64,000 nucleotides of DNA from Lineus longissimus (taxonomy: Eukaryota), in the NCBI RefSeq assembly GCF_910592395.1, contig NC_088312.1, positions 2,933,858 to 2,997,857 of the forward strand, read 5' to 3'. The notes beneath the pieces were generated by a model. That model did not search any database. It was not told where the DNA came from and worked only from the letters and a program-made list of their open reading frames with translations. How positions within the stretch are numbered: position 1 is the first letter of the stretch; every line of letters begins with the position of its first letter. A program made the position numbers and the translations under genes. Below are positions 30,564 to 53,185 of the stretch, piece by piece.

Positions 30564-30666
30564 GTAGGATTGAGAATTATGCTGTTCTAGTCCATTGTTG
30601 AGCCTGCTTTTCATTCATTGCATTCAATATGATACGTTCAGAAAGTGGAAAGGGTCTTGATACTTG

Positions 30667-31078
30667 TGTCAGATATATACTGAATGATGTGTCAGATATA
30701 TACTGAACGATGTGTCAGATATATACTGAACGATGTGTCAGATATATACTGAATGATGTGTCAGATATATACTGAATGATGTGTCAGATATATACTGAAT
30801 GATGTGTCAGATATATACTGAATGATGTGTCAGATATATACTGAATGATGTGTCAGATATATACTGAATGATGTGTCAGATATATACTGAATGATGTGTC
30901 AGATATATACTGAATGATGTGTCAGATATATACTGAATGATGTGTCAGATATATACTGAATGATGTGTCAGATATATACTGAATGATGTGTCAGATATAT
31001 ACTGAATGATGTGTCAGATATATACTGAATGATGTGTCAGATATATACTGAATGATGTGTCAGATTTATACTGAATGA
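30667..31078. repeat. Minisatellite: 23-bp unit GTGTCAGATATATACTGAATGAT x ~18 in a PARP4 intron
   Basis: Near-perfect tandem copies are directly visible, with occasional T>C variants in the unit. Confidence 0.95.
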
Positions 31079-31885: not shown

Positions 31886-31991
31886 GTAGGCATGTACGAT
31901 TTTAAAGGGCGTGGCAAGGGGCTGTTGCCAGGGTACGTGATTTGTGTAGTACTGTGTCTCATATCTAAAGCCAATGATATCTTTTCTTCAG

Positions 31992-32213
31992 GACGAAGAG
32001 TTTCATGATCCACACATATCTGATCTGGTCGAGAATGAAGATGTTGATATTCTGGATTACATGGAGTATGAAGGAGAATGTCCGTCCAGGGAGGACAGTG
32101 AGTCGGAGTCGGGGTCCAGCGTGGACAGTGAGTCCGAGTTGAGGTCGGGTTCCACATATGATGACTATGACGTCTGTGAGGCACTGTCACTACCCCAGTT
32201 GGCGGAATCATCC
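31992..32213 (+). CDS. PARP4: PARP4 exon (acidic linker)
   Basis: DEEFHDPHISDLVENEDVDILDYMEYEGECPSREDSESESGSSVDSESELRSGSTYDDYDVCEALSLPQLAESS (ORF 31974..32279), donor |gtaagc. Confidence 0.8.
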
Positions 32214-32224
32214 GTAAGCATGCC

Positions 32225-33152
32225 ATTATGTACCACTTATATGCTGATGACAGTCAATTGTATGTGGCCTTCACTATAATTGAGATTAGTACCACCTGCT
32301 CCAAGATCTCTAATGCTGTCCACGATTTAAATCTCTGCTTGGTTGACAACTTTCTTAGCTGTAATGGCGACAAGACCGAGATTCTGCTAATCTGTTCCCG
32401 CAGGTTCAGCAGCACTATTAATCTCCCCGCCATCCGTATCATTGATGCAAATGTATATTCTTCTGTTTCTGCAAGAGATTTGGGTGTGATCTTGGACCGT
32501 GATTTCAATTTCAAAGAACACATAAACACCTGTGTACGGGCCACCAATTTTCACATTCGTAACATCGGGAAAATCAGAAAATATCTAACTCCAAATACCA
32601 CCAGGTTATATGTCCAGGCTCTTGTAATATCTCGCCTGGATTTCTGTAATTCCCTTTTCCTTGGTTTTCCCAATTCAACAATTATACCCCTACAGAAGGT
32701 ACAACACTCTGCCACTCGCCTAATTACCAAGACCAAGAAACGATCTTCCATTTCCCCAGTACTCAGGTCTCTACATTGGCTTCCTGTGCAACAGCGCATC
32801 AAGTACAAGGTTCTCCTTCTTACTTACAAGTGTCTTCACCAACTTGCTCCCCAATACCTTTCAGAACTTCTCACCGTTCATACCGTTTCTCGAACACTGC
32901 GCTCTTCATCGGCCGTTCATCTGTCTATCCCAAAGGCCAATGTCATGTCAGTCGGTGGTAGAGCATTTTCAATTGGAGCCCCTCAGCTGTGGAACAAACT
33001 TCCTTAACCTGTTAGGAACTGCAGCTCTCTGTTATCTTTCAAGGGACAACTGAAACATTTGCTTTTTAAAGAGGCCTATCAAGTGCTTTGAGCGGCCAGT
33101 TAATGGTTGGATACTGCGCTATATAAGACTCGTATTATTATTATTATTATTG
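32225..33152 (+). mobile_element. 5'-truncated L2/CR1-clade LINE fragment (reverse-transcriptase C-terminus, 3'UTR and microsatellite tail) in a PARP4 intron
   Basis: ORF 32228..33007 begins at the RT YADD motif (LYADDSQLY) and carries the clade-typical C-terminus ...RSLHWLPVQQRIKYKVLLLTYKCLHQLAPQYLSELL...RTLRSS...GGRAFSIGAPQLWNKLP. A frameshifted ...SFKGQLKHLLFKEAY tail follows, then a (TTA)n tract at ~33133-33151. Confidence 0.8.
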
Positions 33153-33879
33153 GACAAACATGAACCTTTGTACACGAACGTGGTTGGTGACTGATGATTA
33201 TACAAATAAACTAATACACCTTTCTTGGAGCGCCGATAAATTTTTTTCAAAAACATCCTTTTCAGATTTCCATTCCATAAATTACCACAAATGGGTGATT
33301 TTCCAATGATACAAGTAAAGTCTGATTTTCAGATGATCAAACCATTTAGTTGAACATTTTCATGCCCAAAATCCATTGGCCAAATATCATTAGATTTATG
33401 ATCCTAAGAGTGTTTACACTTGTAAGCATTTTGACACCATTTTTAGCTCTGTGAAAAATTTTTGGATTAAGGACATACCGGTAAGGTAGTTACATCCACT
33501 CTCCACTTTTTTGATCAAACAATCAGAATACAGTTGGAAGTAATACTTGTGGGAAGAAAAATTGGAGTAGTAATTTCATGCTGCAGAAGATATTTCACCC
33601 TTTTGTCATTAGAGTAGTTGGTGACCTTCCTCTGGGTGTGACCTCATCTGAAGAAATGAGAAAATATTTTAAAGGGCGTTATCTCGACAAAAGATTTTCT
33701 CATGAGAAACCTAGATCGATCAACACTTTAAGCATTTTATCAGTTGTGGAGCATTATATGTGATATTACCAGGCAAGCATATTTTGAAGATTTCACCTCA
33801 TGAGTCAGGTTGCTACCACAACTCTACAAACCACTTTGTGTGATCTCCAATGAAAACAGTACCTTATAAGGAGACGAAA

Positions 33880-34031
33880 CTATAGATTACATTTGTTAGG
33901 CATTTTCCAGTTTCCCATACTCACTTCTTCCACGAATGGCTTGCATTTGCAAATTGCACAACCATTTTCATCCCTCTCGTAGTCATTTCCAGGGCAAGCC
34001 ATTCGGCATTTTGGAGTTGCTCCACAGTACC
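33880..34031 (-). CDS. Nested antisense gene, exon 2: antistasin-like cysteine-rich domain through the stop codon
   Basis: Minus-strand acceptor CGACAG|, then GYCGATPKCRMACPGNDYERDENGCAICKCKPFVEEVSMGNWKMPNKCNL*. The Cys pattern C-x3-C-P-x-G-x7-NGC-x2-C-x-C matches the antistasin-domain consensus (leech antistasin CRKTCPNGLKRDKLGCEYCEC). Alternatively a GTGAGT donor after ...FVEE would splice on to a further unseen exon. Confidence 0.5.
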
Positions 34032-34119
34032 CTGTCGAAAGAGATATTCAAATATACTCTGCACAAAACTGGACTTGTTCATTATATCTTTTTGAAATTT
34101 TCTTGAATCGATACCTTAC

Positions 34120-34183
34120 CTTCTGCCTGTACTTTCAGAAGTAGTATTCCCAACAGAAATGATAGACTATACAGATGCTTCAT
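34120..34183 (-). CDS. Nested antisense gene, exon 1: signal peptide of a secreted antistasin-like peptide
   Basis: Minus strand: ATG MKHLYSLSFLLGILLLKVQAE (hydrophobic signal-peptide-like), followed by donor GTAAGG. Confidence 0.5.
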
Positions 34184-34716
34184 GTTTTTGTCTCTGTGGT
34201 CTTAAACTGGAATTGTGTGTGCCGTCAAGTGCTATGATTTCGTCCTTGTCTCCTATGCTTGTATTGAAAACAATTTTTATCCTCAAACACCTGTTTTGTT
34301 TATGCATGGAAAACTTTAGGTGTTCCACTTCATCGTGACTTTCCTATCAAGATAACAAAATTTGGCGAAAAATAAATTATACATCTAGATATCCATTATC
34401 TCAGATTGAACTTGAAATTCATATAGATAAGATTTTACATGGTCGTTAAAGTGCTGAACTCCCACAATTTGTTCATTGAATACATGGAACCTACACAGCT
34501 GTTAAATTTCCCCACATAAAAACCAAGTCAGAACTTATCAAAGCAGTCTTGCAGAAAAGTTACGCTTCCTAGTCTTGGTCTTGCTTCAGTATGATGCTAA
34601 CGCCCCTTATGACTGATTAAGAACCAGTAGGCTATTAGAATATTACTCACACCAGTCACTGATTGCACCAACCTTAATTACTGACAATTACATTTTGATT
34701 CATTCATATATTTCAG

Positions 34717-34810
34717 AGTACCATCTGGGCTGATGACATTCAGCCAATCACGTTTCAGGCAGGAAGGTCCAGCTCAAGGATCGAGTCATTCGATGAGTTT
34801 CAGGATTTAG
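34717..34810 (+). CDS. PARP4: PARP4 exon
   Basis: STIWADDIQPITFQAGRSSSRIESFDEFQDL, phase-consistent. Confidence 0.65.
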
Positions 34811-35070
34811 GTAAGGTTTACAACTCAATTTAAAGGGGACTTCAGGCAGAGCTTTAGGCTCTGATTAATGGTCACCTATTTGCACAGTTAGGTGATTGTG
34901 AAATAGACGAACCTGTTCACATTGATGCTGTAATGGAATTCAGAAATGGCAATTCCACTCTTGAATAGAGTAGAAAAGAGAGGACTTTTTGCCTGCTTCT
35001 GAATTTTTGTAAGTTTACCACTTTTTGTCTTTCAATTTGTCAAAAGAATTGTATTTTTGTCATTCTTTAG

Positions 35071-35175
35071 ATGAGGGAAGTCTTGATTTCGATGACTATG
35101 AACTCTCCTCAGATGCAGTGGCCGACGCTCCAGAATATTTGGATCTTGCAACAGACACTTTAGCAAGAGTTGCTG
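35071..35175 (+). CDS. PARP4: PARP4 exon
   Basis: DEGSLDFDDYELSSDAVADAPEYLDLATDTLARVA; its phase-1 end joins the giant exon in frame (g + ag = E). Confidence 0.65.
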
Positions 35176-36409
35176 GTAATTTATTTCACTTTTTTCTGTT
35201 CTTCGTGATGACTCTTTTTAATACCTTGGTACTGCCATGATCTGTCAGGACCCAGATTTAGAGCTAAAAAGTTTTAAGTGCAGAGAAACAATACCAGGTA
35301 CATTCTTGTTCTGTTTGTTGAGTCTTTACTCTTTGGCAGACCGTTCGAGATCCAATTAGCTCCACTGAATCAAATTCATTTTAAATTCTATATTGCCCTA
35401 CCCAGTTCAAGGCGAAGGACGCCATCACCATTGATGGAAAACCGCATGCAAGAAATTTGCTATGAAGACTCGGAAACTTATTCTCTTATGTTCTCAGGAG
35501 GTAATGCTACAGTCTTGTCATTCACCTCCTTCGGGAGGAAGTTAGAATTAAAACTCTTTCTCGTTCCCACTCGTCCAAATTTTGGCAGCCGCCCTGATGA
35601 TATTTTTTATATCACATTTTGCCACTACTTCATTGTGTTTTGGATCAGACCACAAATGCGCAACTCGTGCTGACAGTGCTTCCGTTATATTAGTATGTAA
35701 AGCATAATATCTGATTGTATAGATCATGACCTTGACTGCTGAATTCCGTTGTATGCCACTACATGTCAGGAGTAACAATTTCATTGGTAATAGTACTCAG
35801 TCATAGATTCTTTGATGGCGTTTAATCAATATACATGTAGATTCTACTGTGAGCCATCAATGATTAGATGATGGAGAATGTTCATCATAGATTCATTGAT
35901 AGAAACACAGGTTGTATCTATGGTGTTATCATTGACTCTATCATGGTATCTATAATAGCCTTTTTTATGGGTCATCAACAAATTGTTTTTGAATTGGTGA
36001 ACAATTCTTTTTTTTCCAGAATTCTGAAGACTAACTCTAATGGTTTTATACTTTGATACTTGCATCTATGATGGTGGGGCCCATCATAGAATATACAATG
36101 GGTCATCATAGACTCTAATGCTTGCCCGACAGAGAATCTGTGACGGGACATGAGTGTAAAACATGGTTTGTGATATTCATCATAGATTGTACCATGGGCC
36201 CATCAGTGATTCGTCATGGATTGTACCATGGGCCCATCAGTGATTCGTCATAGATTGTACCATGGGCCCATCAGTGATTCGTCATAGATTGTACCATGGG
36301 CCCATCAGTGATTCTATGATGGAAACGTTTGCCTCTGTCAAGTGGTGAGATTTGTCTTCATTTCATACCGAATGACTTTGACACAAGTTACCATCTTTAT
36401 TTACTTCAG

Positions 36410-39400
36410 AGATAGAACAGTCTTTGAAAAGACCCTCACCACCTGAAGCATCAATAAGACGTAGACTACCCCTACCCCCACCACCAGCACACCCAGCCCC
36501 ACCAATAGCACGGGCAAGTTACAGATCTGCAGTTTTTACAAACGAAGCTAAGGCAGGTTTTGCAGGAGCCTACAGAGGTGGACCAATAATGGCTGATGCA
36601 TTACCACCACCATCACCACCTATGAGAGGAGGTGGATCAACTCCACCACCACCACCCGGGGCAGGTTTTGCAGGAGCCTCCAGAGGTGGACAATTAATGG
36701 CTGATTCACCACCACCACCACCACCCAGGGCAGGTTTTGCAGGAGCCTCCAGAGGTGGACAATTAATGGCTGATTCACCACCACCACCACCACCCAGGGC
36801 AGGTTTTGCAAGAGCCTCCAGAGGTGGACAATTCATGTTTAATTCACCACCACCACCACCACCACCCGGGGCAGGTTTTGGAGAAGCCTCCAGAGGTGGA
36901 CAATTAATGGCTGATTCACCACCACCACCACCACCACCACCACCACCCGGGGCAGGTTTTGCAGGAGCCTCCAGAGGTGGACAATTTATAATGGCTGATT
37001 CAACACCACCTTCACTTATGCCCAAGTCATCTGTATTAATGGCTATGCGAGAACTCCCTTCACCATTACCTAAAGTGGCTGCTACTAGAGATACGACACA
37101 CTCGCTTACAACACCAGTCGATGCAGGTTTGAAAGTAATGGCAGGAAGGCATATAAGAATGGGGATGAAAAGTCTGCCAGCAAAAAGCCTCGATGCATCA
37201 CTTGATGACATTGTGAAACCTACAACCGATAAACCAGATGTAAGGGAACATGCTTTTTCACGAGCGAGGCCCCGGAGGTTGTCTGAGTTGAATAAAAGCC
37301 AACGGCTGGGGATCAGCGATGCACCAGAACCAGTTTCATATGGCGTATACAGTTCAATGGCAGATGAGAGGGAGATGGGTGCAGAGACTGTTGAAGTTGC
37401 TGCTCCTACACCAAAACCTAGACCGAGGGTAAGTGAAGAGGCAGTTTTGATTGATGAGACATGTGGGAGTAATTTGTTTGATTCTAGTTCTCTTCTCGTG
37501 GATGAAGTTGATGGTGCTGAGCGGCAAGGTTTGGTGTCTAGTAGTATGTCACGTTTGAACAAGAAAGTCTTGGGTTGGCCTAATCATGCCAGTTCTCATC
37601 TGGCTCATCCTTTATATAACCTTACCAATCATACTTTTGGTTCTAACAGTCGTGCATTTGCCCCAACCAGTCCTACATACGGCCCAACTAGTCCTTCATA
37701 TAGCCCGACTAGTCCTACATACAGCCCAACCAGTCCTTCATATAGCCCGACTAGTCCTACATACAGCCCAACCAGTCCTTCATTCGGCCCAACTAGTCCT
37801 TCATATAGCCCGACTAGTCCTACATACAGCCCAAGCAGTCCTTCATACGGCCCGACCAGTCATTCATATAGCCCGACTAGTCCTGTCTTTAAACCGACCA
37901 GTCCTTCATTAGTCAAACCTGATTGGTTACATTTTCAGCCAACTAGCCCTTCCTCTCCAATGCATGCAAGACCTGAGCATGGTGAGAAAACCCTCTTGCC
38001 CTGTTCTTTGAATTCCGATAACAAAGTTACTAAAATAACTGTTGAATCAGAAGCTTCACGTATTGACGAAAGACCAAAGTTTGGAGAAATAAAATCATCA
38101 TTGTTTGGCTCAGTATCTCGAACAGGTGGATTGGTAGGAACACGAACATCCCAGTCTGGAGCTCCATCTGAAACGGGTGGCTTTGGAGGAACACAAACAT
38201 CCTTGTTTGGAGCTCCATCTCAAACAGGTGGCTTTGCAGGAACACAAACATCCTTGTTTGGAGCTCCATCTCAAACAGGTGGTTTTGGAGGAACACAAAC
38301 ATCCTCATTTGGAGCTCCATCTGAAACGGGTGGCTTTGGAGGAACACAAACATCCTTGTTTGGAGCTCCATCTGAAACGGGTGGCTTTGGAGGAACACAA
38401 ACATCTTCATTTGGAGCTCCATCTGAAACGGGTGGCTTTGGAGGAACACAAACATCCTTGTTTGGAGCTCCATCTGAAACGGGTGGCTTTGGAGGAACAC
38501 AAACATCCTCATTTGGAGCTCCATCTGAAACAGTAGGCTTTGGAGGAACACAAACATCCTTGTTTGGAGCTCCATCTCAAACAGGTGGCTTTAGAGGAAC
38601 ACAAACATCTTCATTTGGAGCTCCATCTGAAACAGTAGGCTTTGGAGGAATACAAACATCTTTGTTTGGAGCTCCATCTGAAACGAGTGGCTTTGGAGGA
38701 ACACAAACATCCTCATTTGGAGCTCCATCTGAAACAGTAGGCTTTGGAGGAACACAAACATCCTTGTTTGGAGCTCCATCTCAAATGGGTGGCTTTGGAG
38801 GAACACAAACATCCTCGTTTGTAGCGCCAGCTAAGTCAGGTGGTTTTGGAGCATCTTCACAACCATCTGGGTTCGATGCTCCAGCGCAGTCAAGTTCTTT
38901 CGTTGGAGCGACGTTGGAGCAAACGTCTGGATTTCGAGTACAGGCTCTACCAATTGCTTTTGGAGCAACATCCCAAAAACCATCTGGGTTTGGATTTGGA
39001 GTACCAGCTCAGTCAAGTGCTTTTGGGGCAGCAACACAACAACAATCGGGATTTTCCTTTGGGGCACCAGCTCAGCCAAGTGCTTTTGGGGTAACACCCC
39101 AAAAACCATCTGGATTTGGATTTGGAGTTCAAGCTCAGTCAAGTGGTTTTGGGGCAACAACACAACCACAATCTGGATTTAGATTTGGAGTACCAGGTCA
39201 GTCAAGTGCTTTTGGGGCAGCAACACAACAACAATCGGGATTTTCCTTTGGGGCACCAGCTCAGCCAAGTGCTTTTGGGGTAACACCCCAAAAACCATCT
39301 GGATTTGGATTTGGAGTACCAGCTCAGTCGAGTGTCCTTTTAAGAGCTGCTGCAAAACCTGTCATTCAAGATAAGCAATCAACAAAGCGAGTATTATTAT

Positions 39401-39945
39401 CCATCCCTTCTGAAGAACCATTGCCTAAACATGATCCAGTGCCACTTCTGAAGAAGACAATAAATGAGAAAAAAAGCGCTTGCTGGGGTGGTCCACCGAG
39501 TGATTTTGCTGAGAGTTTTGGCAGTGATCAGTTGAAGGAACTCGTGGCTGAGATGCAGTTACAAGGTGATCTTAAAGAAGATGATGTGTATGAGATTTCT
39601 GAGATGCTGAAGGAGGTGGAAAAGGCTGAGGAACATGACAAATCGGACAAAACGGCTTTTGGTGGATCTCAGCGGACATGTCCTCCAAATTATTGGATAG
39701 ATTCCTCCGATGATGAGTGTCTGGTTGGCTCTGTCCTGAGCACTGAAGATGGAGAAGAGGTTGGCGAAATACAAGCAAGGAGGAGCTCAGATGTTGGACC
39801 AGCAGCCAAAACGGTGATGCTTGATGCTCCAAAGACTGGTCCAACAACGTATTTGATTAGATCTTCAAATAAAGAAATTCCAGTTGCTCCTGAAGTGCAT
39901 GATCATATGCTGGGTGAGATAGAGGATGTTACTCCAAAGGAGAAG
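36410..39945 (+). CDS. PARP4: PARP4 giant exon: Pro-rich 23-aa repeats, CTD-like YSPTSPS heptads, and FG repeats
   Basis: ORF 36424..40029 is continuous for 1201 aa. Upstream of its annotated start the frame stays open back to the acceptor cttcag| at 36409 and joins the previous exon in phase. Its most likely 3' end is the donor aag|gtagga at 39945, followed by exons restoring the conserved C-terminus. Alternatively it reads through to TGA at 40029 (or a donor at 40013). Confidence 0.7.
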
Positions 39946-40143
39946 GTAGGAACCAATGGATTAGCATTAGTATTTAGGAGGATTCACGTGTTGGCTTCTA
40001 TTCCTCATCTAAGGTACTTCCATGGTTGAAACTTCTACAGGAGACACCCCTATTGGCTACTTTGTGTACCTTGATCTGACCTTCCCAGCTCCTGCCTTTT
40101 GTCCCCCTTTAACAGTAGTATAATGCAAGTCTTCTCTTCTCAG

Positions 40144-52113: not shown

Positions 52114-52352
52114 GTAAGTACTGTACTGGTGCTATTTTCTTTGGACTCTTGTTGAGATGAGAAGTATTGATACTGGTGTTGAGCAGTTTGAGCCATGTCA
52201 GTGAGGACTGCCGGTATGCTTAGTATTCCTAGGTAATGGAAGGCGACAGCACTGGACTGTTGTACCTCTCTTATGACTTCGATTCAGTGTCGGAACCTCG
52301 GAGACGGTACGCCAGTGACACACTATGGTGACGTCTCTGCGTCAGACTTTAA

Positions 52353-52841
<489 letters not shown>

Positions 52842-53185
52842 TGATTACTTGGTCCATGGTGTGCCCCTATTACTACAGTATGCATTCATTATGAGTTCAG
52901 ATATTACACTCAAGAAATTTTGCCTCGATTCTTGCAGATTAGAATGCAACCTTCTACTGCCTTTGATATGATGATGGCACATGTTGTTCTCCTACTCACT
53001 TGGAGTCACACATTTCCAACCAATGTAAAATAAAGAATCATCAAGGTTTGGCTAACTGTCAAGCACAAAATAGTTGTCGGAGAGAAAAGTATTCAACCAT
53101 GATGCTGAAATTTCTTTAAGTTGGTCTCATACCCCTTGTCTGTCAGTGGTCGTTGGAAATCTTGTTATATTTTCTTAATAACTGA

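Follow-up and report, generated by a model that had tools for sequence, protein, structure and literature searches.

In the 64-kb stretch of DNA analysed here (the window), the minus strand between positions 34183 and 33880 probably holds a small, separate gene, lying antisense within an intron of about 2.9 kb of a PARP4-like gene, whose predicted product is a secreted inhibitor with one antistasin-type repeat.

A nested gene model on the minus strand

The host is read on the plus strand between 22.5 and about 41 kb, where its exons match the Pfam families BRCT, PARP_reg, PARP catalytic and VWA; in the locus of a relative, a VIT match is found in addition. At the sequence level, the combination of BRCT, PARP_reg, PARP and VWA, with the VIT of the relative, is the architecture of PARP4 (vault PARP). 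The probable host intron (32176..35070, plus strand, 2,895 nt) has a GTGAGG donor in phase 1 and an acceptor ...CTTTAG, also in phase 1. The flanking exons, 31992-32175 and 35071-35175, join in phase, with T+AT giving Tyr, and both carry similar acidic DDY[DE] stretches (repeat D5). Because of this in-phase join across 32176-35070, the candidate gene most probably lies inside a PARP4 intron, antisense to its host; were 32280 instead the true stop of the host, the candidate would be placed immediately 3' of its end. The antisense, intronic position put forward in the first-pass annotation is hence supported by the host domains and by the phase of the exons that flank the predicted intron.

The same intron holds a plus-strand ORF of 259 codons (32228..33007), which begins right after the donor of the host exon, matches no Pfam family and ends in ...GGRAFSIGAPQLWNKLP, which we take to be the C-terminal motif of a non-LTR reverse transcriptase. 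This ORF bounds the 3' flank of the candidate gene and is not part of it. An AAT-repeat run at about 33140-33160, as read on the minus strand, looks like the tail of retroelement-like sequence. Carriage of the gene by this neighbour through 3' transduction was considered and dropped, since the run, the apparent tail of the element, ends about 700 nt before the gene; moreover, no direct or inverted transposon-like repeats were found bracketing the gene.

Regarding the other genes of the window, all on the plus strand, a DENN-domain gene (299-2685, with uDENN, DENN and dDENN matches) is followed by a region without family match (~7.8-18 kb), and beyond the PARP4-like gene lie a GH47 alpha-mannosidase gene resembling MAN1A (47-53.4 kb) and a gene for an RRM protein resembling SYNCRIP/hnRNP-R (59.8-63.6 kb). 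The nearest database sequences to the window are metagenome contigs of ~74-86% amino-acid identity, including a Tara scaffold (TARA_SAMEA6039747_METAG). Tandem repeats are found at several places. A minisatellite in a PARP4-like intron (30665-31078) has 18 copies of the 23-nt unit TGTGTCAGATATATACTGAATGA with 99% matches. An uninterrupted plus-strand ORF of 1201 codons (36424-40029), in which we see a probable giant exon of the PARP4-like gene encoding disordered sequence, consists almost wholly of tandem coding repeats: Pro-rich 69/141-nt units at 36643-37010, a 21-nt unit repeated ~10.6 times whose YSPTSPS-like heptads are reminiscent of the RNA polymerase II CTD (37662-37884), 14 copies of a 51-nt unit (17 residues) with an FG-nucleoporin-like character (38121-38851) and 63/189-nt units at 38928-39334. 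The CTD-like heptads, which score 18.2 bits with Pfam RNA_pol_Rpb1_R, below its cutoff of 20.3, are unusual in the setting of a PARP4-like gene. Just upstream of the giant ORF, a 34-nt tandem repeat (36175-36314, 4 copies, 97% matches) holds the palindrome CCATGGGCCCAT. Finally, minus-strand ORFs at 52323-52857 are built of a repeated unit, read as ITNHIVINI[LS]LA and as QSYCNQYFIGHH in two frames, which indicates another coding-frame-neutral minisatellite within the MAN1A-like gene region.

The model of the candidate gene opens with an ATG at 34183, in the context AAAACATGA (AAAAC-ATG-A) with an A at position -3. Exon 1 (34120..34183, minus strand) comprises 21 codons plus 1 nt and ends in phase 1; its product, MKHLYSLSFLLGILLLKVQAE, corresponds to a putative signal peptide with cleavage predicted at VQA|E. 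Intron 1 (34032..34119, minus strand, 88 nt, GTAAGG...CGACAG) has the donor G|GTAAGG at 34119, which in our own reading agrees with the consensus at 8 of 9 positions, and the acceptor ...TTTCGACAG|, the last base of which is 34032. Exon 2 starts at 34031, in frame with exon 1 (GYCGATPKCRMACPGNDYERDENGCAICKCKPFVEE). The codon split by the intron, G+GG, gives Gly and is followed by YCGATPKCRMACPGNDYERDENGCAICKCKPFVEE, the reading of exon 2 up to an internal GTGAGT donor (33925..34031, minus strand) being (G)YCGATPKCRMACPGNDYERDENGCAICKCKPFVEE. The start codon, hydrophobic leader, GTAAGG donor and CGACAG acceptor reported at first pass were all found again when the minus strand was read at these positions, and the two exons indeed join in phase 1 through canonical splice sites. 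From its sequence, the gene is thus a strong prediction and a probable real gene.

Its C-terminus would be formed in either of two ways. When the frame is continued past the alternative donor, a perfect GTGAGT in phase 0 directly after ...KPFVEE (33919..33924, minus strand), a read-through tail (VSMGNWKMPNKCNL and a TAG stop, 33880..33924, minus strand, with the stop at 33882-33880) is added, which contributes a seventh, unpaired Cys; the total is otherwise six. This read-through frame gives the 71-aa product that had been announced, the mature peptide of which is 50-51 aa and not 49 aa. When GTGAGT is instead spliced, a plausible and strong phase-0 acceptor (TTTTCTCATTTCTTCAG) ending at 33648, 277 nt downstream, would let the frame close as a six-Cys product through a short third exon (MRSHPEEGHQLL and TAA, 33609..33647, minus strand). 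The first-pass annotation had wondered whether a further exon follows GTGAGT: an acceptor and a candidate for a short closing exon do. This exon is speculative and found no homology support.

The leader was judged by heuristic rules of our own, distinct from SignalP. Positions -3 and -1 must be occupied by small residues, the N-terminal part must contain a basic one, and ten consecutive positions must be hydrophobic and free of charge; the exon itself must span 15-32 codons and have a GTRAG donor in phase 1. The leader, with K2, V-Q-A ahead of the predicted cleavage and an 11-residue core (SLSFLLGILLL) whose Kyte-Doolittle mean is up to 2.55, keeps under these rules the signal-peptide-like character first ascribed to it. 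Exon 1 is the sole match to them, with GTRAG in phase 1, in 128 kb (both strands together), where relaxed rules with any GT donor in phase 1 give 5 matches and very lax rules 54. The leader exon sits 88 nt upstream of the repeat exon, and the probability that an exon of this kind occurs by chance on the correct strand in the 300 nt upstream is ~0.002 to 0.1 depending on strictness, the lower figure being optimistic because the rules were drawn up after the sequence was seen. Annotated family members share this layout, i.e., ...A|E with the first Cys within 1-3 residues: in complete homologues, the signal peptides end ...SEA|KC, ...ANA|EC and ...SNA|EC with the first repeat directly after, and the candidate reads ...VQA|EGYC.

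The six-cysteine repeat and the antistasin family

The repeat CGATPKCRMACPGNDYERDENGCAICKC (33943..34026, minus strand) was assigned to the antistasin type by Pfam, by alignment to antistasin 1skz, by its Cys columns and by null simulation. The Pfam Antistasin profile (PF02822) scores 26.2 bits with the 71-aa protein and 29.0 bits with exon 2 alone, for a cutoff of 21.2, and the match covers the full profile (positions 1-26 of 26), in agreement with the antistasin-like domain named at first pass. The corresponding hmmscan E-value, 1e-5 to 1e-6, applies to a single protein and not to a six-frame scan. When the Protein Data Bank was searched by sequence, antistasin 1skz was the sole match (E = 0.09); the alignment sets ...KCRMACPG... 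of the query against ...RCRVHCPH..., and the Arg of the query takes the place of the residue after Cys33 (CRVHC).

The cysteine spacing of the candidate, C-x5-C-x3-C-x11-C-x2-C-x-C with NGC, falls within that of the family, C-x(3-7)-C-x3-C-x(8-13)-C-x(2-3)-C-x-C. The motif written down earlier stands as far as the NGC spacing is concerned and has to be corrected further upstream, where the sequence reads C-P-G-x7-NGC instead of C-P-x-G-x7-NGC. When 50 homologous repeats were aligned with the candidate, only the six Cys columns proved invariant; the candidate keeps all six, together with the Gly of NGC before the fourth Cys; its identity to individual aligned repeats ranges from 29 to 62%. The loop between the third and fourth Cys counts 11 residues versus the common 10, a minority form present in 14 of 133 homologous repeats. 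In the CRMAC stretch, P1 is Arg, directly after the second Cys, and P1' is Met; among the 133 repeats, both are the commonest states (44 with P1 Arg, 73 with P1' Met).

In poecistasin, P1 is Arg27, located in C26-R27-L-L-C30, next after the sixth Cys (PMC6265900). P1 Arg or Lys is associated with trypsin-type targets and P1 Met with elastase or chymotrypsin, and the disulfides of the family are 1-3, 2-4, 5-8, 6-9 and 7-10 (PMC6265900). The last six Cys hence pair among themselves (5-8, 6-9, 7-10), so that a lone six-Cys unit is structurally self-contained. The N-terminal four-Cys subdomain is absent from the candidate, the mature peptide starting E-G-Y-C with the first Cys of the six-Cys unit. 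In the account of Hydra antistasin relayed by a later paper, the repeats have 25-26 residues (Holstein 1992, as described in PMC7851590). By its sequence, the candidate is a Hydra-type repeat and not a ten-cysteine domain of the hirustasin type.

An AlphaFold model, for which the repeat alignment served as input, contains a short beta hairpin and has a mean pLDDT of 76. Among the nine matches that Foldseek returned for this model in the Protein Data Bank, four are protease complexes of guamerin, hirustasin, bdellastasin and gigastasin. As judged from the profile and spacing comparisons, the repeat belongs to this well-known family of invertebrate inhibitors, of which the candidate gene would be a believable new member.

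Given that the domain is short (28 aa) and that the hmmscan E-value covers one protein only, one might ask whether a chance open reading frame in intronic DNA merely resembles a cysteine-rich motif. We consider this extremely improbable. A profile made from 133 homologous repeats gives 36.3 bits at the site and 8.7 bits for the runner-up in the window, whereas 300 windows simulated with an order-2 Markov model reach at most 14.9 bits (mean maximum 8.2), which effectively refutes the chance reading; a Gumbel fit to the simulated maxima gives P ~1e-6 for even 26 bits. Since the query itself served to retrieve the homologues, this profile leans in its favour; the independent Pfam score agrees. 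The co-occurrence of a signal-peptide exon in the right phase also argues against chance.

The site is moreover alone in its surroundings. Across the six reading frames of the 64-kb window, a loose six-cysteine pattern is matched a single time, and tblastn with 35 homologues places 151 alignments at 33883-34026 (best E = 3.8e-7) and none better than E = 0.1 elsewhere in the window. As the sole antistasin-like site in 64 kb, it is not the remnant of a decayed multi-repeat array; a decayed fragment of a larger multi-antistasin pseudogene, the case that the first-pass annotation had set against its own proposal, finds no further repeat, intact or decayed, over ~30 kb on either side. Neither Rfam families nor tRNAs were found when the window was scanned for them.

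Homologues, conservation and origin

An exhaustive phmmer search of 1.84 billion representative proteins returned 35 homologues at E<1e-3, all of them antistasin-repeat proteins of the typical tandem kind. Names are available for 'antistasin-like' proteins of Hydra vulgaris, Hydractinia symbiolongicarpus and Lineus longissimus, for an 'Antistasin-like domain-containing protein' of Biomphalaria glabrata and for CRIM1-like proteins of the crinoid Anneissia japonica. Across the repeat alone, the closest of the homologues reach 42-62% identity. The candidate has one repeat, and every significant homologue has at least two except one (P0020, 304 aa, one matched repeat), in a search whose threshold lies above the scores that single-repeat proteins would reach.

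Neither the 1.84-billion library nor a word-indexed collection of 5.8 billion proteins contains a close orthologue or an identical protein, and the spliced 57-aa product does not have three 5-residue words in common with any of the 5.8 billion clustered proteins. The host VWA exon matches just two metagenomic ORFs, at 74-85% identity, and the MAN1A-like exon reaches 86% at best; as these host and neighbour exons themselves find nothing closer than 74-86%, the absence of an annotated orthologue is uninformative. A metagenome scan for close relatives returned only the contig of P0028, with an unrelated two-repeat ORF of 50% identity.

More can be drawn from the PARP4 locus of a distant relative (L001, on a 597-kb ENA contig). 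This relative, with exons 55-85% identical in amino acids to those of the window, is colinear up to the equivalent of window position 31906, and the candidate gene lies 2 kb past the exon equivalent to its last colinear one. No antistasin repeat was found in L001 on either strand, be it in the 7 kb that come next or in the 20 kb as a whole. The lack of a repeat at the corresponding place suggests that the nested position of the candidate gene is probably not anciently conserved. Two other related loci (L002 and L003) end before the intron in question.

How the gene came to its place can be read in several ways. It would be possible, although we regard it as doubtful, that the candidate is an expressed, lineage-specific minimal antistasin, i.e., a secreted trypsin-type inhibitor made of one six-cysteine repeat of ~37-51 residues, born from a recent event in which the PARP4 intron captured two exons of a multi-repeat gene, those for the signal peptide and the first repeat. 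Antisense transcription may then couple its expression to that of the host. To our knowledge, every characterised member of the family is larger than ~37-51 residues.

The same two exons, signal and first repeat, could also have been copied from a multi-repeat gene elsewhere in the genome without being maintained or expressed, in which case the locus would be a young partial duplicate, intact-looking in its PARP4 intron and in fact an unprocessed pseudogene fragment. This reading appears rather unlikely to us, as does its corollary that GTGAGT is an orphan donor formerly spliced to the next exon. It draws on the multi-repeat nature of nearly all significant homologues, on the perfect and apparently unneeded GTGAGT after KPFVEE, a stretch resembling the inter-repeat linkers KPFVP and KPTVP of the homologues, on the odd seventh Cys brought by the read-through tail, on the absence of AATAAA or ATTAAA downstream of the candidate gene before 31699, and on the empty corresponding place in L001. 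However, no disabling change is present, the ATG, the leader, both splice sites, the six Cys and the P1 Arg being intact, and the plausible, strong acceptor with its short closing exon lies 277 nt downstream of the supposed orphan.

The phase-0 GTGAGT donor and the uncertain 3' end would likewise fit a larger minus-strand gene with the two exons at its 5' end. Its further coding exons would then be located outside the host intron or have diverged past recognition, and its product would not be a single-repeat mini-protein. This is improbable in our view: the 33.9 kb downstream on the minus strand contain no other antistasin-like or cysteine-rich coding segment, and what lies downstream is the retroelement-like stretch followed by PARP4 exons on the opposite strand.

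Proposed function and comparison with known systems

For the small nested gene that we favour, transcription is presumed, and the secretion of the product, its disulfide pattern, its inhibitory activity and its target are what we infer by analogy with the family. After removal of a 20-residue signal peptide behind VQA, the mature peptide would amount to about one antistasin-type six-cysteine repeat. Three disulfides (Cys 1-4, 2-5 and 3-6, by analogy with characterised family members) would lock this repeat, and a trypsin-like serine protease could be offered the loop Cys-Arg|Met-Ala-Cys at its active site. As in antistasin and hirustasin, inhibition would then be tight and substrate-like (standard mechanism), with Arg at P1. 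Likely roles would be in the control of extracellular proteases, for example in innate immunity, digestion or tissue remodelling, and such roles have been proposed for antistasin-like proteins of invertebrates that do not feed on blood.

If expressed, the candidate would enlarge the antistasin inhibitor family by a single-repeat protein that is very small and easy to synthesise, and would offer a convenient test of whether one six-cysteine repeat suffices for protease inhibition. It is also an example of how short multi-exon genes for secreted peptides escape the ORF-length filters used in genome annotation.

Its closest known counterparts are Hydra antistasin and the proteins annotated as antistasin-like in Hydra vulgaris (XP_065667397.1) and Hydractinia (XP_057307790.1), which have the same six-cysteine repeat of 25-28 residues, without the extra four-Cys subdomain, and follow the same plan, namely a signal peptide ending ...A|E and then the repeat C-[RK]-M-x-C-P-x-G...D-x-N-G-C-x-I-C-x-C. 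These proteins carry 4-6 tandem repeats with a loop of 10 residues between the third and fourth Cys, whereas the candidate has a single repeat and a loop of 11. The leech single-domain antistasin-type inhibitors, which form part of MEROPS family I15, comprise hirustasin, bdellastasin, guamerin, piguamerin and poecistasin, and are likewise small, secreted, single-unit proteins; leech inhibitors are also the top structural neighbours of the AlphaFold model of the candidate. They share with it the reactive loop C-P1-x-x-C, in which P1 is Arg or Lys where the target is trypsin-like (PMC6265900). In contrast, they have ten Cys, with an additional N-terminal four-Cys subdomain and two more disulfides, while the candidate begins at the six-Cys subdomain, and their salivary role as anticoagulants is not implied for it. 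The CRIM1-like protein of Anneissia japonica (XP_033095763.1, P0003) has repeats of the same family, but proteins of this kind are multidomain, of ~800 aa, and use the repeats as modules, whereas the candidate has a signal peptide of its own and stands alone as a single repeat.

Regarding its genomic arrangement, the candidate resembles other animal genes nested in introns on the opposite strand, in which a whole small gene likewise occupies one host intron, and there is nothing unusual in this. Among invertebrates, antistasin-like genes are widespread, and genes nested antisense in introns are common. Compared with these known systems, the stand-alone single six-Cys repeat would be the one mildly unusual trait of an otherwise ordinary gene, with a known family and a common arrangement.
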